From contig JBBTST010000002.1 in assembly GCA_038064575.1 (NCBI GenBank), forward strand, positions 9,992 through 73,991: DNA of 64,000 bases. Direction: 5' to 3'. This document shows positions 2,508-47,914 of this stretch, piece after piece. Each line of letters starts with the position of its first letter. Position 1 is the first letter of the stretch. The stretch comes from Patescibacteria group bacterium (GTDB lineage: Bacteria; Patescibacteriota; WWE3; UBA101185; 2-01-FULL-41-18). The notes under the pieces were generated by a model. That model saw only the letters and a list, made by a program, of their open reading frames with translations. It did no database searches and was not told the DNA's origin. The position numbers and the translations under genes are program-made.

Positions 2508-5500
2508 ATGTTTAAAAGGATTTTATCAAAACTTGTTAAATTCTTAATATCTTTAATATCTATAGAGTTACTTTTACTTCTAATTTTTAATTTGTTAGTT
2601 TTTTTGGGACTGCTAATGTTTAAAAGTCAGCTGGCCTATGGGGATTTGCCACCTTTTCCAGAGTCTTATCAGACAGCTTTTGAAGACTTTTTTTATGTTT
2701 GGAAAAATTTTTCCTTTGGTTTGTATAGATATCCAGGACAGTTACAACCACTTCTGCAGGGTCTATTACTCCTTCTTTTTGGCAGTCCTGTACTTGCCCA
2801 AAAAGTTTATATGTTTTTCCTACCTGTAATGGCATTTTTGGGTTTTAAGTACCTGCTGAAAAGCTCTTATAAGAGTGTGAGCAGAATATCCGGTTTTATA
2901 ACGGCTTTCTTTTACGCCTACAGCCCCATTTTTATTCAGGAATTCATGGGAGGAACTCTATACTCCACACTGCTCGGCTTTGCGCTTTTTCCTGTGGTCT
3001 TTGCAAAGTCCATTCAGTTGTATGAGGATTTCAACCTAAGAAGAGTATTAATTCTGGCTCTTATTTTGGGAGGTATAGTATCTTTTTACCCGCATTTTAT
3101 TGTGATTTATTCAATTTCAATGTTTGTACCTTTTGTATTAGACGTTCTTTTAAATAGATTTAATAACTTAAAGATTTGGTTAGGGTTTTTTTTAGTGGGA
3201 GTATTGGTTATAGTGCTAAATCCTATTTTTGTGTTAACCAGCTTTAACCTTGTTAATACTTCTTCCGGTGTGACGTCGTCTTCTTTTTCAGCAAATGTAG
3301 AAAATTTTTTGAATGATGTTCATTACACTTATTATTGGAGCACATTTGGTAACATTTTTAGATTTGGAAATAATAATAGTCCACACGGTTATTCTGAGCA
3401 AAGTTGGTGGACGTATCAATTCTACGCGATTGTAACTTTTGTATTTGGTTACTGTTTTATCTTTAGAAGGAAAAAATGGAATGGGGTTTTTTGGTTTTCA
3501 CTATTTCCTTCACTTATCTTAATTATGGGCTTTGTGTATTTTACCCATTTAAACAAAACAGATTGGTTGTTTAAGTTGTTCTCCCCACTTATTCTTTTTA
3601 GAAATCCTGCAAAGCTAACTTATTTATCATTCTTTTTCTTTTCACTTCTTTTCTTTGAAGCTCTAAATTTTGTAGAATCCAGATCAAAGACAGCCTTAGT
3701 AAAATATATATTTTTTGTTCCCATAAGCATAAGTATCCTCATTTATATTTGGCCTGTATTTACACAGGATTTGAGCTTATCAAAGTACAGATCAGGTTTC
3801 ACTCTACCAAATGTTTATAAGGAAGTTATATCAAGAGTGGAGAAGGGTGAAGGCAGAAATTTTTGGTTGCCATCCTCTCATGAAAGCACCTCAATCAAGT
3901 TGGCGTGGCTTGATCAAAATAAGTTAGAATCTCAAATTGGAGTAAATCAATTTAGCGATGATTATTTTGTGGACGAAATCATCAACCCGCTAAATGCCTC
4001 TTTACTTAAGAGTAAGGAGCAAGAAATGAAAAACCTTCTAAATATTGCTCAGGTTAAAAATGTTATTTTGTTGAAAGACAAAAAAGACAACATATCAACT
4101 GAAACTTTATTTGGGTCTGGAAGTATTGTTGGTGGAAGCCAGGTTTTAAGTTCCTATTTGGATTTCCTGCCAAAACTTCATGACACAAAGAGTTATTCTA
4201 TTTATCATAATGATACTTACTACCCCACTTTTTTTGTTCCAGATACTTTTGCGTATGTTGATGATGATGCCGTCTTTAACGGGTTTTTGAATACAATAAA
4301 TCCTGAAGCAAAAATAGCTCTGATTAAGAGTAGCTTTTTTTCAAGCTTTCCTTCAAGTAGTTTTTCAGTGATTTGGCCTTCAAAAAAACACACCAACTTT
4401 GTAATGAGTGGCTGGGACCCGCTTTGGATTTGGCCTAGTGTTAGTGTAGATCCTAGAAATGAGGCTGTTTATAGCCTTGTTAGATTAAAAGAAAACTTCA
4501 TAAAATTAAAAAATTCAGATTTTTCTGAAAGAATTGAAACTCTTTTGTGGCTTGCTTCCAAAAGAGTTGAGGAAGTGTCAGAATTTAATATTACTCAAGG
4601 TAACTTAAGATCTAAGATTCTTGCAGAATATTATGCTTCCATGAGTGGGGGTTTTATTTTACTTGAGGGTTATCCTTCCAAAACTGATTCTAGATATCAA
4701 AAATTCTTGAGGAAATATTCTGAGTTTTTAAAGAGGGGATTAGAAAAAGCAAATGTTGATGAGCAGGATGGAGAGTTGGGTTCAAAACTACAGGCACTTT
4801 TAAAGGAAGCACAGAAAGTTACTTTAAAATTTGATTATAATTGTGGTCTAGACATTTGTTTTTATGGCCAGGTTCCAAAAAGCGCAAATTATGAATTAAA
4901 TCTGGGTTTGGAATATAAAGGACAAGAGCTTATTGAAGCTGGTGCTGTTTTGTCATCCGTTGGTCTAATGGGTGAAAAGGTTCTAGCCATTCCTCTTAAG
5001 AAGGGTCCAATTCAGAACTTGGGGGAAGTTTATTTGGAGAAGGACCATTATTATGAGCTTGAAATAGCGTTTCCTCCAGGAGAAAACCTTGTTTCAGAGG
5101 GGCCTTGGATTGAAGAAATTGAGCAGGCCCCGCCTGATTGGAATAAAATTGATTTTATAAAGACTGACTCATACCTTTTCCCACTTTTGAGTAATAAGAA
5201 ATACTCTAAGGTAAGTCAAGTTATGCACAAAAAAATAAAATCAATTAATGAAAAAGGAAGCTTTAGACTTACTTTTGATTATTTGTTAGATAATGGGGAT
5301 CTTGGGTATGCGGTGGTTCAGAGAGATAAGAACACAGGTAATTATATACAAGCTATGGGGGGCAGGGTTTCCCCAAATGTCAAAAGCTTTGAGAACTGTT
5401 TGAATGAAAATTGCTTTTCTACTCTTAATAAAACTTTCCAAACATCCGGTTTGGGGGAAGATGCTAGGGTAATCTTTTTTGTTGCTTCAAACAACAAGCT

Positions 5501-5993
5501 TTCTAAATTGGCGACTATAAAAAATGTAGCTCTAGAGCAAGTACAGGACATAGCAATGCATCTTAAAGCGGCCGGTTTTACTGATTACAAACCGTTAAGC
5601 ATTAAGCCAAAGCTAGTAAAATTACGCCCCTTTTTATACAAAGTAGAGTTTGAAGAATTAACTTCTGAAATACCAGTGGTTTTTAATCAAAGCTTTCACA
5701 GAGGGTGGAAACTTTTTAGAACTGACACATGCAAGGGGTGGATTGTGGGTTTTATTCCAAGGTGCAGGTATTTTTCTTCAAATGAATATGATGAAAACCA
5801 TACTCGCATAAACGGATTTGCCAATGGATGGGTAATCAAACCACAGGACTCTACAAACATAAGTTTTTATATAATTTTTGTACCCCAAATCCATTTTTTT
5901 ATGAGTTTAATCTTCAGCTTAGTAGTTTTGATAGTGTTTTTACTTATCTATTTAAGGAGGAAAACCTTTGAGAGAAGGAATTTATGGACTTAA
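2508..5993 (+). CDS. Giant membrane protein (1161 aa): N-terminal multi-TM domain, roughly 700 aa extracytoplasmic domain, C-terminal single TM anchor; YfhO-like or GT-C-like architecture
   Basis: Long ORF with about 12 N-terminal hydrophobic helices, a long hydrophilic middle region, and a terminal hydrophobic segment (FYIIFVPQIHFFMSLIFSLVVLIVFLLIYL) followed by basic residues. Confidence 0.5.
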   Translation: MFKRILSKLVKFLISLISIELLLLLIFNLLVFLGLLMFKSQLAYGDLPPFPESYQTAFEDFFYVWKNFSFGLYRYPGQLQPLLQGLLLLLFGSPVLAQKVYMFFLPVMAFLGFKYLLKSSYKSVSRISGFITAFFYAYSPIFIQEFMGGTLYSTLLGFALFPVVFAKSIQLYEDFNLRRVLILALILGGIVSFYPHFIVIYSISMFVPFVLDVLLNRFNNLKIWLGFFLVGVLVIVLNPIFVLTSFNLVNTSSGVTSSSFSANVENFLNDVHYTYYWSTFGNIFRFGNNNSPHGYSEQSWWTYQFYAIVTFVFGYCFIFRRKKWNGVFWFSLFPSLILIMGFVYFTHLNKTDWLFKLFSPLILFRNPAKLTYLSFFFFSLLFFEALNFVESRSKTALVKYIFFVPISISILIYIWPVFTQDLSLSKYRSGFTLPNVYKEVISRVEKGEGRNFWLPSSHESTSIKLAWLDQNKLESQIGVNQFSDDYFVDEIINPLNASLLKSKEQEMKNLLNIAQVKNVILLKDKKDNISTETLFGSGSIVGGSQVLSSYLDFLPKLHDTKSYSIYHNDTYYPTFFVPDTFAYVDDDAVFNGFLNTINPEAKIALIKSSFFSSFPSSSFSVIWPSKKHTNFVMSGWDPLWIWPSVSVDPRNEAVYSLVRLKENFIKLKNSDFSERIETLLWLASKRVEEVSEFNITQGNLRSKILAEYYASMSGGFILLEGYPSKTDSRYQKFLRKYSEFLKRGLEKANVDEQDGELGSKLQALLKEAQKVTLKFDYNCGLDICFYGQVPKSANYELNLGLEYKGQELIEAGAVLSSVGLMGEKVLAIPLKKGPIQNLGEVYLEKDHYYELEIAFPPGENLVSEGPWIEEIEQAPPDWNKIDFIKTDSYLFPLLSNKKYSKVSQVMHKKIKSINEKGSFRLTFDYLLDNGDLGYAVVQRDKNTGNYIQAMGGRVSPNVKSFENCLNENCFSTLNKTFQTSGLGEDARVIFFVASNNKLSKLATIKNVALEQVQDIAMHLKAAGFTDYKPLSIKPKLVKLRPFLYKVEFEELTSEIPVVFNQSFHRGWKLFRTDTCKGWIVGFIPRCRYFSSNEYDENHTRINGFANGWVIKPQDSTNISFYIIFVPQIHFFMSLIFSLVVLIVFLLIYLRRKTFERRNLWT

Positions 5994-6324: not shown

Positions 6325-7962
6325 ATGGCTTTTATAATTGGGGGTTTAGATGATCAGTTGATTCTTTTGGTATGGGCTAATGTATCAAAACTATTCTTTG
6401 CCTTTAATAACAAGGCTTTTTACGATTTCTTTCTGTATAAGGAAGTTTTTTGGCCTTTGCTAAAACCTTTTGAGACCAATGAGCCCATTTTATGGTTGGT
6501 TATGTCTTTATGCCTCTCCATATTTGGAATAAATTTTTATAACTTCTTTCTTTTGTTCACTCTTGCAGCAGCTTTTACAGCAAGTTTTTACCTTTTTAAA
6601 GAATATAAGTTTGGGTTACTCTATTCTGTTGTCTTTACTTTTTCTTCCTATACATGGTCTCATTTAGGAATACATCTGGGGCTCTCTCAAATTTGGCTAC
6701 TTCCAGTATTTTACAAGATTTTTCTGGATGCATTAAAACTTAAATCTTTTCAAATTAAAAAGTTTTTTATAAGTGGAGTAATCTTAGCGTTAATTGCTTT
6801 AACCGCCAATTATTTAGCCTTTTTTATATTGCTGTCATTGTTTGCTGGAGTAGTTTTAATAGTAATATTACCGTCTAAAATTAAACTCTTTCCGGTGAGC
6901 CTGTTGGTGAAGGGGACAATGGTAACCTTTGTAGTTTTTGTTTCCATCTCAATTGCTACTTTATACCCTTTCATAAAAGCAAACTACTTTGACCCCGCCT
7001 TGAACGGCCCTAAAGCACAAATGATGGTAATAGATAGACCACTTTCAGACTTTTTCACATTTAGTACAAGACCCTGGTACTTTTTTATTCCTCCGCCGAG
7101 TAACCCAATCTTAGGGGGGCTAGGTCAAAGAATGATCTCAACAATTAAATCAACTAACTATTTTCTTGCCGATGACTATTTTGAGGGCGAGCACGCAGCA
7201 AGTTTTTATGGGTATTCTCTTTATATACTATTTGGTACTCTCTTTATTACCCTTGTCAAGAAAAAAAAAGTTCCCAAAGAATCCATATTTTGGTTGCTTC
7301 AAGCGTTGGTACTTTTTTTAATAGCACTGCCCCCTTTTATAAGTTTGAACGGTATTAAAATCTATACGCCAGGTTTCTTACTCTTCAAGTTTTTCCCTAT
7401 GTTTAGGGTCTCTACCAGATTAGGAATCTTTATACTATTCTTTTGTATTCTTGCTTTGGCTGAGTTAATTAAGGTTTATTATCCTTTGGTAGTGAGAAAA
7501 AGACTTTTTGTTTTTTGTGTCTTTACGGCTTTTATAGTGTCGATTATTGAGGTTTTTGTTCCGGTAAAAATATTTAAATATGAAGATCCTCCTGACGTAT
7601 ATGTTTATCTAAAAGCTAAGACTGATGGATCTACCTTTGTAGTATTTCCTTATTCAAAAACAAAAGAAGCACTTTTTTGGCTTCCTGTACACCAGAAGTT
7701 TTTATTAAATCCCAGAGGTGCTTTTTTTAAAAATTTTTATTCTGAGACTTTTACTAAAGCTTTAAATACAAATGAAGGCATTTTTAAACTTAAGGATTAT
7801 AATGTTAGGTATCTTATTGTGTTTAAGAATTCAAAAGAAGCTGATTTAAAGGAAATATTAACTCATCCGCTTCTTCAACTGGAAGCAGAATTTGAAGATT
7901 CCTATCTTTTGTTGGTAGGGGAGGATACCATTTATTCCCATGCAGAGGTAAGAAGTTATTGA
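6325..7962 (+). CDS. Polytopic membrane protein, putative GT-C-like glycosyltransferase
   Basis: 545 aa with many TM helices, an internal hydrophilic loop (…ANYFDPALNGPKAQMMVIDRPLSDFF…) and a C-terminal soluble domain. Same strand and tightly packed with neighbours. Confidence 0.45.
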   Translation: MAFIIGGLDDQLILLVWANVSKLFFAFNNKAFYDFFLYKEVFWPLLKPFETNEPILWLVMSLCLSIFGINFYNFFLLFTLAAAFTASFYLFKEYKFGLLYSVVFTFSSYTWSHLGIHLGLSQIWLLPVFYKIFLDALKLKSFQIKKFFISGVILALIALTANYLAFFILLSLFAGVVLIVILPSKIKLFPVSLLVKGTMVTFVVFVSISIATLYPFIKANYFDPALNGPKAQMMVIDRPLSDFFTFSTRPWYFFIPPPSNPILGGLGQRMISTIKSTNYFLADDYFEGEHAASFYGYSLYILFGTLFITLVKKKKVPKESIFWLLQALVLFLIALPPFISLNGIKIYTPGFLLFKFFPMFRVSTRLGIFILFFCILALAELIKVYYPLVVRKRLFVFCVFTAFIVSIIEVFVPVKIFKYEDPPDVYVYLKAKTDGSTFVVFPYSKTKEALFWLPVHQKFLLNPRGAFFKNFYSETFTKALNTNEGIFKLKDYNVRYLIVFKNSKEADLKEILTHPLLQLEAEFEDSYLLLVGEDTIYSHAEVRSY

Positions 7963-9357: not shown

Positions 9358-10938
9358 ATGAAGCTTAAAAAAAGATTTGATTTGGTTGTCCTAATACTTG
9401 TTTTTTTTGTTTTCTTGGTCCCTGTATTTTATCAATTAGGGAATGATTACACTAATGTGGATCAGTTTCTTTGGTATGAAAGGTCCTTAAACTTTTATAA
9501 AGCCCTAAGAAACTTTGATTTTGCAAATACTTATCAGAAATATCATCCCGGAGTGACTGTTATGTATTTGGTAGGTTTAGGTCAGTTAGTATTTTCAAAA
9601 GTAACTACTTTTTCTTCTGATTATAGCTTTGTGCCTTATACCTCTTTTCATCTTTATAATTTCTACACCAAGTTTTTTGTTACCTTAATTTCTTATCTAA
9701 CACTTTTTATGTGTTTTGTTTTAATTTACAGATATTTTGGAAAATTATTTGGATTATCTTTTATATCTCTTCTCCTATTAGAACCTTTCTTTTTAGCTAA
9801 TATTAGAAATTTACATTTAGACACGCTGTTAACCTCATTTATATTTGCTTCTTTTTTGACATGTGCCCTTTGGGTAAAGGAGAGAAAGAGGGGTTTCTTA
9901 ATTCTCAGTTTTATTTTTTGTGGTTTATCTTTACTAACAAAATCAATCGGGATTTTTTCATTAGTGTTAAATACTTTTGTGATTATCCACTCGAGTTTTT
10001 TCTTTAAGATCCGTAAAAAAGAGGCCTTAATAGGATTAGGATCCTTTCTAGTTGGATCCCTTCTGTTATTTGTGCTTTTGTTTCCTTCAATGTGGGTTGA
10101 ACCAATCAGAACAGTAAATAAAATGCTTTATGATGGGGTTATAGACACTGGGGTTTCCGGCGGGCATACTCACTACATTAATCAGATACGGATAAGAAAC
10201 CCCGGGCCTCAATTTTATTTGACTGTTGTCAAATACCGTTTTAGTGTCTACTACATTTATTTATTTTTAGTATCAGTATTGTTTCTTATGGTTTATGGTT
10301 TGGTAAGAAGGAAAACAGCCAATCAAACATTCCATTTTGCCTTTATGGCTTTGCTTTTTTTGGTTAGTTATCTATTAGTATTTTCCTATCTTGTAAAAAA
10401 AACGGACAGATACGTTTTAGTAATATACCCATTTACTGCTTATCTAATTGGTTATTTCTTTGAAGAATCCCACATTCTTAAAAAGTATGTTGGTAGGTTG
10501 GTGTCCAACTTTTTAATATTAAGTCTTTTTTTTATATTAGGATTCATTAATTTTAATCAAGTCAAGGCAGTTTATTCTGTATTTCCTAATATGTTTACTT
10601 TTTATAGTCCTTTTTTTGGCGGGATAAATCAAGCTAAAAAAGTTCTTTATCTTAACAGCGGGGGAACTGGTATGAGGGAAATAGCTGAATATCTAAATTT
10701 GCTTAATTTACCTGTTACTACCAGGGTTGGCTATTTTAATCCAGAAACTCTTCAACCTTGGACGCCTTTAAGAGTTGATAATCTGAGAGTAGAAGAGAAA
10801 AAGAAATATGATTTTATAATAATTCCTGATCAAAGAGGTAAAGAATTTACGCAAGGTTATAATCTAGTTTACTCATACAGAGTTGATACATTAAGATATT
10901 TAAGGGTTTATAAGAGAAAAACCCCTTCAGTTGAGTAG
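9358..10938 (+). CDS. Polytopic membrane protein, putative GT-C family (GT39/GT83-like) glycosyltransferase
   Basis: 526 aa. The N-terminal region (…DQFLWYERSLNFYKALRNFDFANTYQKYHPGVTVMYLVGLGQLVF…) resembles the first-loop and TM2 region of ArnT/PMT-type enzymes. About 11 TM helices followed by a C-terminal soluble domain. Confidence 0.45.
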   Translation: MKLKKRFDLVVLILVFFVFLVPVFYQLGNDYTNVDQFLWYERSLNFYKALRNFDFANTYQKYHPGVTVMYLVGLGQLVFSKVTTFSSDYSFVPYTSFHLYNFYTKFFVTLISYLTLFMCFVLIYRYFGKLFGLSFISLLLLEPFFLANIRNLHLDTLLTSFIFASFLTCALWVKERKRGFLILSFIFCGLSLLTKSIGIFSLVLNTFVIIHSSFFFKIRKKEALIGLGSFLVGSLLLFVLLFPSMWVEPIRTVNKMLYDGVIDTGVSGGHTHYINQIRIRNPGPQFYLTVVKYRFSVYYIYLFLVSVLFLMVYGLVRRKTANQTFHFAFMALLFLVSYLLVFSYLVKKTDRYVLVIYPFTAYLIGYFFEESHILKKYVGRLVSNFLILSLFFILGFINFNQVKAVYSVFPNMFTFYSPFFGGINQAKKVLYLNSGGTGMREIAEYLNLLNLPVTTRVGYFNPETLQPWTPLRVDNLRVEEKKKYDFIIIPDQRGKEFTQGYNLVYSYRVDTLRYLRVYKRKTPSVE

Positions 10939-10947
10939 TTTAAGCTC

Positions 10948-12045
10948 ATGGGATATTATAAAAACATGAATAAGCCTTTTTTAAAGAGCTTTATTAGAGA
11001 TAAAAGAAAAGTATTTTCTTTGACTCTTGAGGTTTTAGTTTTTGTCTTAATATCATATTTTTTTGGGATAGTTACAAAGGCCAATTATAAAGAGGCATGG
11101 GAGTTTGAGACCAGCGATATGTTTCATGAGTTCCAACAGGCTAATGATGTAAGAGCAGGGCTAAATCCCTATAAAAGAATTCTTTCAGGGGACCTGCTTA
11201 TTAATAAAAAATACGCAACATTATTTCCATTATATTACTATTTTTTGACCTTTGTTGGTTCTTTCTCAAATTACAATTTTGAGATTTTTATTGATCACAT
11301 AAGAACAGTACTTTTTTGGTCCGCACTTTTAGGGTCAGCTTTTTTATACATTTTTTTCAGACAGAAAAATATGAAAGTCCTTGGATTTCTTGCAGTGGTG
11401 CTTTTTTTATTTAATCGATGGAGTATTAATACACTTAGTGATTCAAAACAGGATTTTATAGCAATAGCCTTTTTGATAGTAAGTCTTCATTTCTTTAATT
11501 CAAAACAAAAACTAGCTTATTTATTTTATGGGCTTTCTCTTGGGATAAAGCATCTAGGCATTTTTGTGTTCCCGCTTTTTTTGACACCCTTTATTTATAA
11601 AGAACAAAAACCCAAAAAGTTTTTTTTAAGTTTATTGTTTTTGTTCCTTCCTGTTTTGATTCCAGCTCTTCCTTTTTTATTAAATGATTACAAAGCCTTT
11701 CTCTTTTCTATGCTGTTTTCCTTTACAAGAAAGCCCGCCACAACCAGCATTCCATTTGGTTATGAGAATCTGCTTATTTTGTATAATATTGGAGTTAAAA
11801 ATAATAAAGTAATCTACTACCTTATTCCTAGGATCCCATTACTGTTTTCAATGCTTTTAAATATTTATTTGTTATTTACAAAACGAATCCCTGTCTATTT
11901 TTATCCTGTTGTTTCCCTGTTTTTATTTATATCTTTTAATCCAGTCTTGTTTGATCAATATCTTACATGGGTTACACCGCTCTTGCTTATGGGTGTAGTA
12001 GAAGTATCTGCTGTCAAAAAGGAAAAGGTACATGGAAAAATATAA
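10948..12045 (+). CDS. Polytopic membrane protein (365 aa), possible DUF2029/GT87-like membrane glycosyltransferase
   Basis: Hydrophobic multi-TM ORF in the glycan locus. No definitive motif was found. Confidence 0.35.
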   Translation: MGYYKNMNKPFLKSFIRDKRKVFSLTLEVLVFVLISYFFGIVTKANYKEAWEFETSDMFHEFQQANDVRAGLNPYKRILSGDLLINKKYATLFPLYYYFLTFVGSFSNYNFEIFIDHIRTVLFWSALLGSAFLYIFFRQKNMKVLGFLAVVLFLFNRWSINTLSDSKQDFIAIAFLIVSLHFFNSKQKLAYLFYGLSLGIKHLGIFVFPLFLTPFIYKEQKPKKFFLSLLFLFLPVLIPALPFLLNDYKAFLFSMLFSFTRKPATTSIPFGYENLLILYNIGVKNNKVIYYLIPRIPLLFSMLLNIYLLFTKRIPVYFYPVVSLFLFISFNPVLFDQYLTWVTPLLLMGVVEVSAVKKEKVHGKI

Positions 12046-13330
12046 TATAGTTTGTCTCTCAAATCAGTTTTTTGACCAAGAGTTAAAAACCAATAAATGG
12101 CATATGATGACCAGGCTTTCAAGATTGGGGCACAATGTTGTTTTTGTTGATCCTCCAACAAGGTTTGCCAGGGTTAAACGACTTTTAAAAAGAGAGCTTT
12201 CTCTATTTCACTTTCTAATAGGGCTAAAAAGACATAACGGGGGGAACCTCCTTGTGTATACCCCAATTAATTTGTTTAACTTCAGTCCTTTTTCTATTTT
12301 TAATATTCTGGTCCAAACGCTTAGAATAAATACTTTTCTGAGAAGTTTTGAGAAAAGGAGAACTATTCTTTGGGTTTATCACTTTGACTATCCCGGTCTT
12401 GAAAAGCTCTTGAAAAGAATTAACTATGATTTGTTGGTTTATGATGTTGTAGATGAATATAGTTCCTTTCCTGAATATTTGGAGAAATCAAGTCTTAACA
12501 AGGGTCTTGTGAGAGTTATAGAGTCTTTTGATAACGCGCTAAAGATAAAACTTAACCAGGGAGGATTAAGCGGTAAGGCTTGGGTAAATTATAGAGAAAC
12601 CTTACTGTCAAAATGCTCAGATATCATCTTTGCTACAACTCCTGCGTTAGTAGAAAAGTTTAAGAAATTGTGCATGAAACTTGGGAAAAATGAGAACCTG
12701 GTGTTTTACACTCCCAATTGCGGAGATTACGAGAGGTTTAAAAATTCAAAATCTTACAAAAATGACCTCCCAAATGATTTAGGTACTATTCCCTCTCCTG
12801 TTATTGCAACCGCAGGAGCAATTGACTCCTATAAAATTGATGTGAAACTTATTGAAAAATGTGCAAGAAAGTATCCTCAGTTCTCTTTTGTTTTGATTGG
12901 GCCTAAAAAAGTCTCAGATCCTAATCTTGATCTGACTCAGCTTCTAGCCTCTCCAAACGTTTATTTTTTGGGAGAGAAAAAATTTCAAGATTTGCCAAAA
13001 TACTATGCTGGAATTGATTGTTATTTCATTCCTTACAAGCTAAATGATTATACTTTAGGTGGGTGTTATCCGGTTAAGTTTCATGAAGCGCTGTCTGTTG
13101 GACTTCCGGTAGTGGTTACCAACATGCCTGTATATAAAGATTTTGAAGACATTTGTTATATAGCCAAGTCAGACGAAGATTTTGTTAGTCTAATTGATGT
13201 TGCTTTAAGAGAAGATAGTGATGAAAGGGCAACAAGAAGAAAGATTGTTGCAAGCAAAAATTCCTGGGAAGTGAAAGTTGAGAAAGTTCTTAAGATACTT
13301 GAAGATTATGAAAGTACTGTCTCAAGATAA
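12032..13330 (+). CDS. Glycosyltransferase family 1 (GT4-like), cytoplasmic
   Basis: 432 aa soluble protein. The N-terminal region (…NIVCLSNQFFDQ…HMMTRLSRLGHNVVFVDPP…) and the C-terminal half (…YFLGEKKFQDLPKYYAGIDCYFIPYK…GLPVVVTNMP…) match the GT-B/GT1 fold pattern. Confidence 0.6.
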   Translation: MEKYNIVCLSNQFFDQELKTNKWHMMTRLSRLGHNVVFVDPPTRFARVKRLLKRELSLFHFLIGLKRHNGGNLLVYTPINLFNFSPFSIFNILVQTLRINTFLRSFEKRRTILWVYHFDYPGLEKLLKRINYDLLVYDVVDEYSSFPEYLEKSSLNKGLVRVIESFDNALKIKLNQGGLSGKAWVNYRETLLSKCSDIIFATTPALVEKFKKLCMKLGKNENLVFYTPNCGDYERFKNSKSYKNDLPNDLGTIPSPVIATAGAIDSYKIDVKLIEKCARKYPQFSFVLIGPKKVSDPNLDLTQLLASPNVYFLGEKKFQDLPKYYAGIDCYFIPYKLNDYTLGGCYPVKFHEALSVGLPVVVTNMPVYKDFEDICYIAKSDEDFVSLIDVALREDSDERATRRKIVASKNSWEVKVEKVLKILEDYESTVSR

Positions 13331-13417
13331 GCCTGGGTAATGATATGTACCTGACCACTACAGTATGTATAATATATTAAATGGGTCATAGTAATTAATT
13401 GTTGAAGGACATTAAAA

Positions 13418-13897
13418 ATGAAAAGACTGCTCTTTACCTCTTCCTTTCTTGCAATCATAGCCGGATTTATTTTGGTTAGCGGCGCAACGTGGGCTATTTA
13501 CTTTACCTACACTAATATCGCTCTGGAAAACATCACAACTCCCGAAGATGCCTCCATTCCCAACACGCCAGTTCGAGGCCCTCTCACCCTAAAGGCCCAG
13601 GCCGATATTATAAGAATTCACGCGCTTCGCATAGCAGGGGGTAAAACCTACGCCGAAATGCCGCGCCAGATACCAAAACTCGACGAAAAAGGCAACAGCG
13701 TGCTTGATGACAAAGGGAATCCCGTTATGACGGCCAACACGACACGTGATATTTGGGTCACGGCAACAACTCTTAGGACCGCGTTACATTTAGCTATTCT
13801 TACCTACGCTTTTTCAGGTTTTACGCTGTTGTTTGGATTAATTTCAATCTGGACAGGGGTTATATTCTTAGCCTTGAGTAAAAGAAAATTAAAATAG
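13418..13897 (+). CDS. Small membrane-anchored protein (159 aa) in a GC-rich island; unknown function
   Basis: About 50% GC against a roughly 35% background. Own TGnTATAAT-like -10 (tgtataat at 13366-13373) and an SD (gaagga) upstream. Predicted N-terminal TM (LLFTSSFLAIIAGFILVSGATWAIYF) and C-terminal TM (LAILTYAFSGFTLLFGLISIWTGVIFLAL). Confidence 0.55.
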   Translation: MKRLLFTSSFLAIIAGFILVSGATWAIYFTYTNIALENITTPEDASIPNTPVRGPLTLKAQADIIRIHALRIAGGKTYAEMPRQIPKLDEKGNSVLDDKGNPVMTANTTRDIWVTATTLRTALHLAILTYAFSGFTLLFGLISIWTGVIFLALSKRKLK

Positions 13898-14114
13898 CTT
13901 AGTCTTTTTGGGGTTTTCGCTTAAGCTCACTCCGATTACAATCGTAACAATCTGTCTGTCGTTACTACTCTCTATATAGCATAACGGCTTTCCTCGCGTA
14001 GCAGGAAGCTCCAAGCTTTAGCTTGGAGAGGAATGCTGCGAAATATGGTTCATATCTGAACTTTACAGTGTTCGGATTCGTTTTAGAACTCGTGTTCTTG
14101 GTATAATGATTTTA

Positions 14115-15242
14115 ATGGCAAGAATCCTTTTTGTTTCTAATTCTTCGAATCCGGGTGGGATGGAAAAGCACGTTAAAGATTTGGTTGTGGGTATGAGAAA
14201 AAAGAGGCATGAAGTGTTTGTATGGTGTCCTAGTGGCGTCATGGCAGACGTATACGAAAATGAGGGGGCTAAGGTAATTAGGCTTGCTATACAATTTGAT
14301 GTTGACCCCTTTTATATAGTTACCCTCTTTTACTTTCTTATAAGAGAGCACATTGATATAGTACATGCCCATGAGTTGAAAGCCGTTGTGAATTCGCATT
14401 TAGCGGCTTTTTTGGCAAGAGTAAAAGTTAGAATTTCTCACAGCCATACCCCAATTTCTACATGGAAGAAAGCGTTTTTAGGCTCAAAACTAACCTGTTT
14501 TTTTTACTCCACTTTTGTGAATATGTTTTCTACAAGAGAGCTGGCCTTGACTGAACAGATAAGAAAAATCAAGATAAAGGAAGGTATTAAGGCAGAAAAG
14601 TTGATAGTAATCCCGAATGGGATTGATACTAAAAAATATGATATTCCAAAGACGGTGCGTGAGGGTTATAAAAACGAGATTAAGTCCCGATATGGCGTAC
14701 CAAGAGATGCCTTTGTGCTTGGGAATTTATCAAGGCTTTCCATTGAGAAAGGGTATGACACCCTTATTGAAGCTTTTTCTCTACTTAAGGATCCCTCAAG
14801 TTATCTTTTTATAGGTGGGGGCGGGGTTTTAGAAGAAGTGATTTCTGGCAGTGCTAAGAAACTTGGGATATATGAGCAAACAATAATAACAGGACTTTTT
14901 GAAGAAGAAGATAAGGTCAAGTTTTTATCATGTCTTGATTTACTGGTTTTTCCAAGCCAAACAGAGGGCTTTGGTTATCTACCTTTGGAAGGTCTTTGTT
15001 TTGGACTTCCTGTAATTGTTTCTGATATTCCTGCATTAAAGGAGGTGTGTAGGGAATATGTTACTTATTTTAAAAAAGGAAATGCTTTAGATCTTACCGG
15101 CAAAATAAGAGAAGTGAAAGATAAACTTGGCTCTTTCACTTTTGAAGAAGTAGTAAGCTTTATTAACAAAACTTATTCACTAGAAGTGTTTTGGGATTCT
15201 TATAACAGGCTCTATGAAAATTCTCTTTCAAACAAGATTTGA
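14115..15242 (+). CDS. Glycosyltransferase family 1 (GT4)
   Basis: EGFGYLPLEGLCFGLPVIVSDIP matches the GT4 E-x7-E signature. An extended -10 (TGGTATAAT, 14099-14107) lies immediately upstream, so the transcript may be near-leaderless (ATG at 14106 or 14115). Confidence 0.8.
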   Translation: MARILFVSNSSNPGGMEKHVKDLVVGMRKKRHEVFVWCPSGVMADVYENEGAKVIRLAIQFDVDPFYIVTLFYFLIREHIDIVHAHELKAVVNSHLAAFLARVKVRISHSHTPISTWKKAFLGSKLTCFFYSTFVNMFSTRELALTEQIRKIKIKEGIKAEKLIVIPNGIDTKKYDIPKTVREGYKNEIKSRYGVPRDAFVLGNLSRLSIEKGYDTLIEAFSLLKDPSSYLFIGGGGVLEEVISGSAKKLGIYEQTIITGLFEEEDKVKFLSCLDLLVFPSQTEGFGYLPLEGLCFGLPVIVSDIPALKEVCREYVTYFKKGNALDLTGKIREVKDKLGSFTFEEVVSFINKTYSLEVFWDSYNRLYENSLSNKI

Positions 15243-46688: not shown

Positions 46689-47309
46689 CTACTTGTTATA
46701 CCTTCTTATAATGCCTGTCACAACACCTTCAATCTTAACGTCTTTGGCAAAAATCGGTTGCATATTTGGATTTGCCGGTTGTAGCCTGATTGTATCCTTT
46801 TCTTTGTAATACTTTTTAAGTGTTGCAAACTCATTATCTATTAAAGCAACAACAATCTCCCCATTATTTGCCGTGGCTTGTTGAGCTATTACAACATAAT
46901 CACCGTCTAAAATACCTTCATCTATCATGGAGTCGCCTTTTACCTGCAGTACAAAGCAGCGTTTGACCTTGGAAACAAGGTCTGCGTTGACCATGATGGT
47001 TTCTGTGGGATTTTCAATGGCATCAATCGGCCTTCCCGCTGCAATGAAGCCAATAAGAGGGAGCTCGACGCCCTGTAGGGTAGTGGCTATTTTCTGATCC
47101 AGTACTTCAATTCCCCTCACAGCACCCTCAAAGCGGTTAATGACGCCTTTTTTGACTAGGGCTTGCAAGTGTTCGTGGACGGTTGCAAGGGAGGATAAGC
47201 CCATGGCGTTGGCAATTTCTTGAAGGGTAGGGGAATAGCCGGTTTTCTGGATGTATTGGGAGATATAGTCAAGGATAAGTTTTTGCTTTTTGTATAGTGT
47301 TATTGGCAT
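46689..47309 (-). CDS. lexA: LexA repressor (S24 peptidase)
   Basis: N-terminal wHTH (TLQEIANAMGLSSLATVHEHLQALVKKG), an A-G cleavage site (FIAAGRPID), and an S24 Ser/Lys dyad (VKGDSMIDEGILDGDYVVI…K). The start is taken as MPITLYKK (47309). Confidence 0.85.
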   Translation of the reverse strand: MPITLYKKQKLILDYISQYIQKTGYSPTLQEIANAMGLSSLATVHEHLQALVKKGVINRFEGAVRGIEVLDQKIATTLQGVELPLIGFIAAGRPIDAIENPTETIMVNADLVSKVKRCFVLQVKGDSMIDEGILDGDYVVIAQQATANNGEIVVALIDNEFATLKKYYKEKDTIRLQPANPNMQPIFAKDVKIEGVVTGIIRRYNK

Positions 47310-47418
47310 AAGACTACTATACCGAAATAAACCCAAACATGTCAATACTTCTTTGGACTTTTTAGGGTTTTTGTGCTAGCATGCATTGCAATTTCAAGAA
47401 TAGAAAGGAAAGGGAAAG

Positions 47419-47631
47419 ATGGACGGAGTGAATAAGGCTCTGGAGATCACTGCGCTTTTCAGCGTAGCCATGGGTATCGGGTTGATCCTATACCCATGGG
47501 TCACCCAGCCTGGACCAGTTGCGAACCCGGGCGTCACGGCCACATTTGCGGTTGTTGGCATTGCATTCCTCGTAGGAACCCTTCTAATCGGTATTGTAGG
47601 GATTCTAAGAGTGGGACTTATCCGTAAATAG
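47419..47631 (+). CDS. Small two-TM membrane protein (70 aa) in a GC-rich island; coding status uncertain
   Basis: The protein is hydrophobic (ITALFSVAMGIGLILYPW…FAVVGIAFLVGTLLIGIVGIL). The locus is about 50% GC and is followed by about 200 nt of GC-rich non-coding sequence ending in a terminator. The opposite-strand ORF (47394..47714) looks like junk. Confidence 0.4.
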   Translation: MDGVNKALEITALFSVAMGIGLILYPWVTQPGPVANPGVTATFAVVGIAFLVGTLLIGIVGILRVGLIRK

Positions 47632-47795
47632 CGCCTCACTGGGCTGTTTTGTAGCAAACTCACAACCACCCAAAGACAAGCGGATAAGAGGCACATAACG
47701 AGGGGTGTCCTCAATCAGACGGAAGCCTTGAGGAACTCATCGAACAAACCCTTGAAGTTGGTCTCGGGAGTGGGTATTGACACCAAACCGGGGAT

Positions 47796-47835
47796 GGGCG
47801 TTTATGCAGAAATGTATGAACGCCCTATTTTATTA
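47796..47835 (+). terminator. Putative intrinsic terminator closing the GC-rich island
   Basis: gggcgtt-(16 nt loop)-aacgccc followed by tattttatta. Confidence 0.4.
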
Positions 47836-47914
47836 CTTTACCTACAACAAAAACCACCAATTATAACCTATAGCTTGACTACGCAATCAATAATATGCTA
47901 ATATCAATCAACTT

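Follow-up and report, generated by a model that had tools for sequence, protein, structure and literature searches.

Whether a short segment of unusual composition inside a glycosylation operon is a foreign acquisition or a native gene with peculiar codon usage is the question raised by the locus described here. It lies in a 64,000-nt stretch of a Patescibacteria contig, hereafter the window, whose host is a low-GC Patescibacterium with glycosyltransferases (GTs) resembling those of WWE3-type genomes. The segment is placed between two GT genes, GT1 and GT4, and carries a single open reading frame (ORF) for a 159-aa protein (Table 1). An earlier note, made from the sequence alone, had proposed that the segment was either acquired horizontally or represents a small conserved gene whose codon usage is atypical. 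Our analysis favours the former, since four collinear relatives lack the segment and its GC content, also at third codon positions (GC3), departs from what both the host and the gene family would lead one to expect; the stretch from 13331 to about 14093 is probably a horizontally acquired single-gene insertion in this lineage. The latter proposal holds in so far as the gene belongs to a conserved family, but conservation does not extend to this position.

The comparison of orthologous loci, a check suggested by the earlier note, was based on four contigs (L092-L095) selected via GT1 orthologs at 53-59% identity. With respect to the genes that each contig contains, all four proved to be collinear with the window, the shared order being membrane/PMT-like genes, GT1, GT4, a second GT1, a Wzy_C/PMT fusion of about 1010 aa and a convergent Polysacc_synt gene, and synteny was confirmed for five flanking genes with amino acid identities of 44-59%. 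These loci have a GC content of 31-36%. The segment is missing from all four, and the 159-aa protein has no match in them. The gap between GT1 and GT4 measures 24 nt in L093, 25 nt in L094 and 13 nt in L095, while in L092 the slot (2663-3331) holds an unrelated gene for a 222-aa TPR-repeat protein. It seems that additional genes have repeatedly entered the GT1/GT4 slot.

Alignment of the right junctions revealed the motif TTGnTATAAT 7-8 nt before the GT4 start codon in five of five genomes, i.e., the window (14098-14117), L092 (about 3320-3343), L093 (about 7295-7317), L094 (about 7305-7327) and L095 (about 7200-7222). Since the motif is invariant across these genomes, the extended -10 of GT4 is ancestral and not created by the insertion. 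The earlier note had correctly recognized an extended -10 in front of this gene, which reads TGgTATAAT at 14099-14107, while its interpretation as a re-initiation signal connected with the insertion is not supported. It is probably a conserved internal operon promoter giving a leaderless mRNA from 14115, and by this alignment the right edge of the insertion falls at about 14093, shortly before the motif. The slot may tolerate foreign DNA because it is situated just upstream of this ancestral promoter, and one relative carries a different gene there. The GT4 start aligned with the relatives is the one at 14115, which is probably the actual start in place of the mechanical ORF start at 14106; the latter falls within the -10 hexamer. 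An assembly chimera was considered and rejected, as both junctions are 100% identical in five independent assemblies (two from ENA and three from Logan, from different runs).

Table 1. Features of the GT1/GT4 region, with positions counted from the first nucleotide of the window.
Feature	Positions	Strand	Remarks
GT1-type glycosyltransferase, 432 aa, native	12032..13330	+	Pfam Glycos_transf_1; 34.9% GC; stop codon forms the left edge of the insertion
Inserted segment, lineage-specific, about 0.76 kb	13331..14093 (right edge approximate)	.	42.9% GC; missing from the GT1/GT4 junction of relatives
Promoter-like -10	13366..13373	+	perfect TATAAT at 13368-13373, TG abutting at 13366-13367; consensus match only
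Shine-Dalgarno-like GAAGGA	13404..13409	+	8 nt before ATG; read from sequence
Two-transmembrane (TM) protein, 159 aa, unnamed Patescibacteria family	13418..13897	+	ORF; GC 45.2%, GC3 46.9%
Long imperfect hairpin	13997..14040	+	perfect 8-bp core 14009-14016 / 14021-14028, loop TTTA; minimum free energy and centroid fold; no T-run after it
Terminator-like hairpin	14054..14087	+	8 pairs (3 G-C), then TCGTTTTAGA; terminator scan, weak consensus match
Extended -10 TTGgTATAAT of the GT4 gene	14098..14107	+	7 nt before ATG at 14115; invariant in relatives; outside the insertion
GT4-family glycosyltransferase	14115..15242	+	Pfam Glyco_transf_4 and Glycos_transf_1; 375 aa according to gene callers

Concerning composition, the window as a whole has 36.2% GC (standard deviation, sd, 4.1% for 300-nt windows) and the operon around the segment 33-35%. 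The earlier note had assigned about 50% GC to the segment. The deviation itself is genuine, but the value for 13340-14100 is 42.6%, and 50-51% is reached only in the central 300 nt or so, by 300-nt windows starting at about 13450-13540; this peak is one of only two above 50% GC in the window. The upstream spacer of 87 nt has 31% GC and the downstream spacer of 208 nt 41.8%. The ORF was compared with 587 overlapping chunks of 480 nt from 42 other ORFs, and it proved to be an outlier. Its GC3 is 0.469 against a chunk mean of 0.315 (sd 0.048; z = 3.2), a value reached by 2 of the 587 chunks, and its GC at second codon positions (GC2) is 0.45 against 0.336 (z = 2.8), reached by a single chunk. Total GC gave z = 2.5, codon-usage distance was exceeded by 11 chunks, and GC at first codon positions was unremarkable. 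The deviation is thus real, with a GC2 part that is driven by amino acids and a GC3 part that is synonymous.

Could such values have arisen in place? The gene may be ancestral at this position and deleted in the relatives, with its GC and GC3 shaped by selection on expression, codon bias or mRNA constraint. The conservation of the family, the strong -10 (a consensus match) in front of the gene and the distance of the relatives compared would agree with this scenario, and enolase, with 0.395 the most GC3-rich housekeeping gene of the window, suggests that expression and GC3 may be weakly linked. However, as enolase attains only this value, expression-linked codon bias cannot explain 0.47, and the GC3 of the ORF lies above that of all other window genes except short stretches. 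Moreover, the GC of the family gene tracks that of its flanks or host (88 hits tabulated; r = 0.75), and in other hosts of 33-35% GC the gene has a GC of 0.32-0.38 and a GC3 of 0.15-0.30, so that nothing intrinsic fixes 45%. For a host of 34% GC the regression predicts a GC of 0.38 and a GC3 of 0.27, while the window copy has 0.452 and 0.469 (z = 2.4 and 2.9). The two copies furthest from the regression are this one and that at locus L001, whose deviation has the opposite sign (-0.11). Given also that four relatives lack the gene, that one of them has a different gene in the slot and that the family has no fixed genomic position anywhere, we consider an ancestral origin improbable. Under the preferred reading, i.e., a horizontal insertion, the high GC3 would reflect a donor of roughly 43-50% GC with incomplete amelioration, and the high GC2 would stem from the conserved Ala/Thr/Pro/Gly/Arg-rich sequence of the family. 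The nearest homologs (68-73% identity) are found in hosts of mostly 43-48% GC, with one exception at 56%.

The distribution of the family is in line with mobility. The neighbourhood of the gene differs in every genome examined, and copies from 'Nomurabacteria' (identities of 0.61-0.71, and 0.99 for a single near-identical pair) are no more similar to one another than to all others on average (0.61). Pairs with 82-83% amino acid identity span hosts that are 12-21 GC points apart and also join a Peribacteria with a Taylorbacteria metagenome-assembled genome (MAG), and one MAG has two family copies that are 72% identical. In close relatives DNA similarity continues through the flanks; in non-syntenic pairs similarity (75-86%) begins 0-31 nt before the ATG and ends at or just before the stop codon. 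One such case is L034 (3001-3483) and L038 (1781-2263), with different flanks and a DNA identity of 86% that sets in 5 nt ahead of the ATG and ceases 14 nt short of the stop codon. Taken together, the alignments indicate that the family gene moves, and that recognisable shared element ends are absent in the non-syntenic pairs.

A defined mobile cassette with a dedicated recombination system, whether of the integron type, a phage moron or a miniature element, would also move a single gene. The layout of the insert is that of a moron (one gene of different GC between operon genes, with its own predicted promoter and a terminator-like end), and at L001 (GCA_030647415.1, JAUSKB010000026.1) the family gene, 45% GC in a 56% GC host and hence 11 points below it, is bracketed by a 34-nt direct repeat, CCGCCGCTCGCTACYACTCGCCACCCAGCAAAAA, at 4918-4951 and 5603-5636. 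The two copies are identical at 33 of 34 positions with a spacing of 685 nt, and L002, a short Logan contig that covers this locus, breaks off at the second copy. An att-like duplication would be one explanation of the repeat, a local repeat another. On the other hand, when direct repeats flanking the gene were sought at all loci and compared with shuffles, only L001 gave a strong signal (z = 26), with L023 and L008 marginal. In the window, the repeat CTGAcCacTACAGT (13351) / CTGAaCttTACAGT (14058), noticed by eye, was not significant, and the same is true for a resemblance by eye between the downstream spacer and the L001 repeat. No attC core motifs (RYYYAAC, GTTRRRY) occur on either strand of 13331-14110, no phage genes are found nearby, and no family member was detected in IMG/VR viral contigs or GenBank phages; the search for a phage, viral or plasmid origin gave one remote actinobacterial plasmid match only. 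In addition, similarity between non-syntenic loci stops at the borders of the coding sequence, which leaves no shared element ends. A dedicated cassette system is therefore highly improbable in our view.

As regards the protein, TM helices at both ends, as described in the earlier note, were recovered by hydropathy (Kyte-Doolittle windows above 1.6 starting at residues 1-13 and 123-137) and in the AF2 model (pLDDT 84.8; helices 2-36 as TM1 and 108-156 as TM2). The basic middle described there was not, the count being 11 K+R against 10 D+E. Between the TM helices the model places a conserved coil (PVRGP), a helix at 55-72 and a small beta-hairpin at 84-106, and almost nothing extends beyond the membrane on the side of the termini. 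By the positive-inside rule (MKR... / ...KRKLK), both termini would be cytoplasmic and the conserved loop of about 95 aa would face outward. As the predicted cytoplasmic tails are only a few residues long, the functional part would have to be the membrane hairpin together with the conserved extracytoplasmic loop. The protein has no Pfam, NCBIfam or PADLOC match; a PHROGs scan yielded only an insignificant match (E 0.088), a PDB sequence search gave matches at E 0.6-0.8 only, Foldseek of the model against PDB and BFVD returned nothing significant, and literature searches found nothing on this protein family.

Homologs are nevertheless abundant. In a collection of 5.8 billion proteins they form at least 990 clusters at 90% identity, the best 120 of which are 63-75% identical to the window protein with at least 91% query coverage and a length of 154-184 aa (nearly all 154-170); these 120 are unnamed or 'hypothetical', and the named sources are Patescibacteria MAGs. 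A scan of GTDB species representatives yielded 102 loci, with record titles naming Nomura-, Yanofsky-, Taylor-, Niyogi-, Sung-, Harrison-, Zambryski-, Terry- and Moranbacteria, Peribacteria and two Microgenomates. Across classes the family is 55-75% identical, with a typical length of 157-160 aa and a mean pairwise identity of 63%, and a 30-sequence alignment has 42 invariant columns, all of which the window protein carries by definition of 'invariant'. Such conservation points to very strong purifying selection. The window protein shows full-length similarity, including VRGP.TLKAQADIIR, (Y/F)AEMPRQ and RDIW.TATTL.TAL, and shares the predicted family architecture of two terminal TM helices, minimal tails and a loop of about 95 aa (hydropathy and AF2). 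On these grounds the window gene is assigned to a large, conserved, unnamed and in part misnamed family of monoderm bacteria.

The misnaming concerns more distant relatives. A profile search of 1.84 billion cluster representatives revealed 535 more distant matches (E<1e-3), some of them in Actinobacteria, and in a search seeded with one actinobacterial relative many matches carried the legacy name 'aromatic ring-opening dioxygenase LigA', used in NCBI and UniRef; examples are proteins of Cellulomonas fimi, Sanguibacter antarcticus, Micromonospora peucetia and Georgenia, for which there is no Pfam or NCBIfam model. Alignment of the Patescibacteria and the actinobacterial profiles with hhalign gave a probability of 99.6% (E 2.5e-24, 148 columns), which shows the two families to be homologous over their full length. 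Shared elements are TM1, E.IT.P.DA, V.GP.T, the AQA.II..H.L helix, GKTYAE and TM2, and in both families the gene is monocistronic in variable neighbourhoods; those of the actinobacterial homologs were uninformative. Identity between the two families is only about 30%, however. At the position of a variable linker in the actinobacterial proteins, those of Patescibacteria carry a conserved beta-hairpin insert (PKLDENG.PVLD..GKPVM), and they also vary much less among themselves (55-75% identity). A relationship to true LigA, the alpha subunit of protocatechuate 4,5-dioxygenase, was rejected, as the members scanned, including the window protein, contain no dioxygenase-related Pfam domain; domain scans of the actinobacterial relatives gave sub-threshold matches to TM regions only, plus one borderline DUF6479. 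Judging from these scans, the name 'LigA' is a misnomer. A remote homolog named LigA is also encoded on the Curtobacterium plasmid NZ_CP126261.1 (137279-137509), with 43% identity over 48% of the query.

Turning to the signals around the ORF, the perfect TATAAT reported in the earlier note is present, whereas the spacing of a TGnTATAAT is not, as the TG abuts the hexamer directly and the site reads TGTATAAT. A consensus scan found a single promoter-like site here, CTGACC-16-TATATT at 13351-13378, and TAnAAT occurs within 120 nt upstream of the gene in 51 of 76 family loci. The predicted Shine-Dalgarno sequence is as previously noted. The perfect 8-bp hairpin ctccaagc/ttta/gcttggag was also recovered, although not at 13995-14020 but as the core of a longer inverted repeat (Table 1), which was found as a blastn self-hit as well. 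The second hairpin is likely the end of the inserted transcription unit, to judge from its resemblance to a terminator; the scan of the region gave three sites, with 1.8 expected.

These hairpins bring up the possibility that the functional element is an RNA in the spacer 13898-14105, either a small RNA or a cis-regulatory leader of the downstream GT genes, and that the ORF is incidental. The 44-nt hairpin with its perfect core would be in keeping with this, and so would the GC content of the spacer, which ranks high among the intergenic regions of the window. The spacer had been described as structured, but its fold is only slightly more stable than those of shuffled sequences (z = -1.8 for the plus and -2.9 for the minus strand), and no evidence of a conserved RNA emerged. 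In Rfam covariance scans, run at gathering and at permissive thresholds, nothing in the window reached a gathering score; a weak full-length match to HgcC (RF00062) at 13908-14051 scored 20 bits, with 50 required (E 0.012-0.044 for the short stretch searched). It shares with HgcC a similar terminal hairpin and GGAA/UUCC helices, but there is no other instance near family genes, and HgcC was rejected because the match is below threshold, is driven by one hairpin and concerns an archaeal family. A blastn search (word size 7) against all fetched loci (about 75 family loci) and the window found no homolog of the spacer, so that conservation or covariation cannot be shown; k-mers enriched downstream of 76 family genes were T-runs only, and six-frame translation against all loci gave no pseudogene remnant. 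The median gap downstream of family genes is 55 nt, hence a spacer of this length is not typical of the family. A leader is missing in the relatives, whose promoter is placed 7-8 nt before the GT4 ATG, and as this promoter is retained downstream of the spacer in the window, the spacer lies 3' of the inserted gene and, if the promoter is used, cannot be a 5' leader of GT4. Since the ORF is, by contrast, extremely conserved as a protein, a functional RNA with an incidental ORF seems very improbable. In our reading, the spacer forms the untranslated 3' part of the inserted unit, perhaps as a remnant of donor DNA.

The sequence of events may then have been as follows. The insert would have entered the short GT1-GT4 gap directly upstream of the ancestral internal promoter driving the downstream genes, as a self-contained transcription unit made up of the TATAAT -10, the Shine-Dalgarno sequence, the ORF and a 3' spacer containing two hairpins, of which the latter resembles a terminator. 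Its product would be a two-TM hairpin with very short cytoplasmic ends and an outward loop containing one helix and a small beta-hairpin. The location in a glycosylation operon is, on this account, an accident of insertion and uninformative on function.

Neighbours of the family gene elsewhere may hint at its function. When neighbours within 3 kb were clustered for 76 family loci, genes for heavy-metal efflux or its regulation recurred, by our count at about 16 of the loci, namely a P-type ATPase (8 loci), a CsoR-like repressor (5), an HMA-domain membrane protein (5) and ArsR (4); the loci concerned include L014, L019, L024, L037, L042, L066, L075 and L077. By a rough estimate, this frequency is about tenfold over chance for such small genomes. 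Genes for SHOCT, DsrE, TspO and cupin proteins are also recurrent neighbours. The identities of neighbours were read from the sequences, with a precomputed Pfam label for SHOCT and DsrE only. Because of the metal genes, a role on the outer side of the membrane in envelope or metal stress could be proposed, although we regard it as doubtful. A broader proposal, which we hold to be unlikely, is that of a frequently exchanged accessory gene of Patescibacteria that would enter permissive intergenic slots as a bare promoter-plus-coding-sequence unit and be kept by unusually strong purifying selection because its outward loop contacts a conserved component of the envelope or of the metal-stress response shared by monoderm bacteria. 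The gene might travel by natural transformation followed by illegitimate or microhomology recombination; another route might be an unrecognised site-specific mechanism, at which the L001 repeats hint.

Several points weigh against our interpretation. The relatives are distant (GT1 53-59% identical), a lineage-specific gain being favoured by composition and parsimony, and a single ancestral loss gives the same pattern if the lineage of the window is the outgroup. The GC2 share of the GC excess stems from amino acid composition and not from foreign origin. The promoter and terminator assignments are consensus matches only, and their use by the insert is a prediction from sequence. There is no integrase or transposase nearby, no tRNA in the window and no significant flanking direct or inverted repeat in the window. 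The closest homolog is only 73-75% identical (best of at least 990 clusters), so the donor cannot be named. Finally, the metal association covers about one fifth of the loci and may reflect co-residence in variable genome regions.

The event itself is routine, being the insertion of a single gene of deviant composition into a variable surface-glycosylation operon. It offers a clear-cut case of a gene gained by a reduced genome of the candidate phyla radiation, at a site where an ancestral internal promoter with an apparently leaderless mRNA gives protection, and bears on how small genomes take up accessory genes without operon disruption. The family is very large, has no Pfam or NCBIfam model and has misnamed actinobacterial kin, which makes it a reasonable target for curation, and it is suited to functional work in culturable Actinobacteria.

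A few further observations were made in the window. A 365-aa multi-pass membrane ORF (10948-12045) has no counterpart in L092-L095 (tblastn, 1e-10) and no Pfam match; at 30% GC it is compositionally not distinct. A PMT_2-like gene (9358-10938) has no match in L094 or L095, and the operon content differs among relatives. The second GC peak, at 46.8-47.9 kb (46689-47914; up to 52.7%), comprises lexA and a 70-aa membrane ORF. The former (46689-47345, minus strand; Peptidase_S24 and LexA_DNA_bind; GC3 0.44) is divergent from the latter (47419-47631, plus strand, about 52% GC), which is apparently strongly hydrophobic, has no Pfam or PADLOC match and is followed by about 280 nt of non-coding DNA at roughly 45% GC. 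This region may be another foreign or unusually constrained islet.

With respect to known systems, the insert can be compared with integron cassettes and with phage morons. It differs from an integron cassette in having its own predicted promoter and in the absence of attC cores, an integrase or a cassette array, and resembles one as a small single-ORF unit in varying genomic contexts. Morons are autonomous promoter-gene-terminator units between conserved operon genes, often of deviant GC, known from lambdoid phages. Unlike them, the insert sits in a chromosomal glycosylation cluster that is conserved in relatives, not in a prophage, no viral homologs were found, and its promoter (TATAAT at 13368-13373) and terminator (the hairpin at 14054-14087) are known as consensus matches only. 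The likeness to a moron consists in a single gene of deviant composition, with a predicted -10 and a terminator-like end, placed between adjacent operon genes and missing in collinear relatives.

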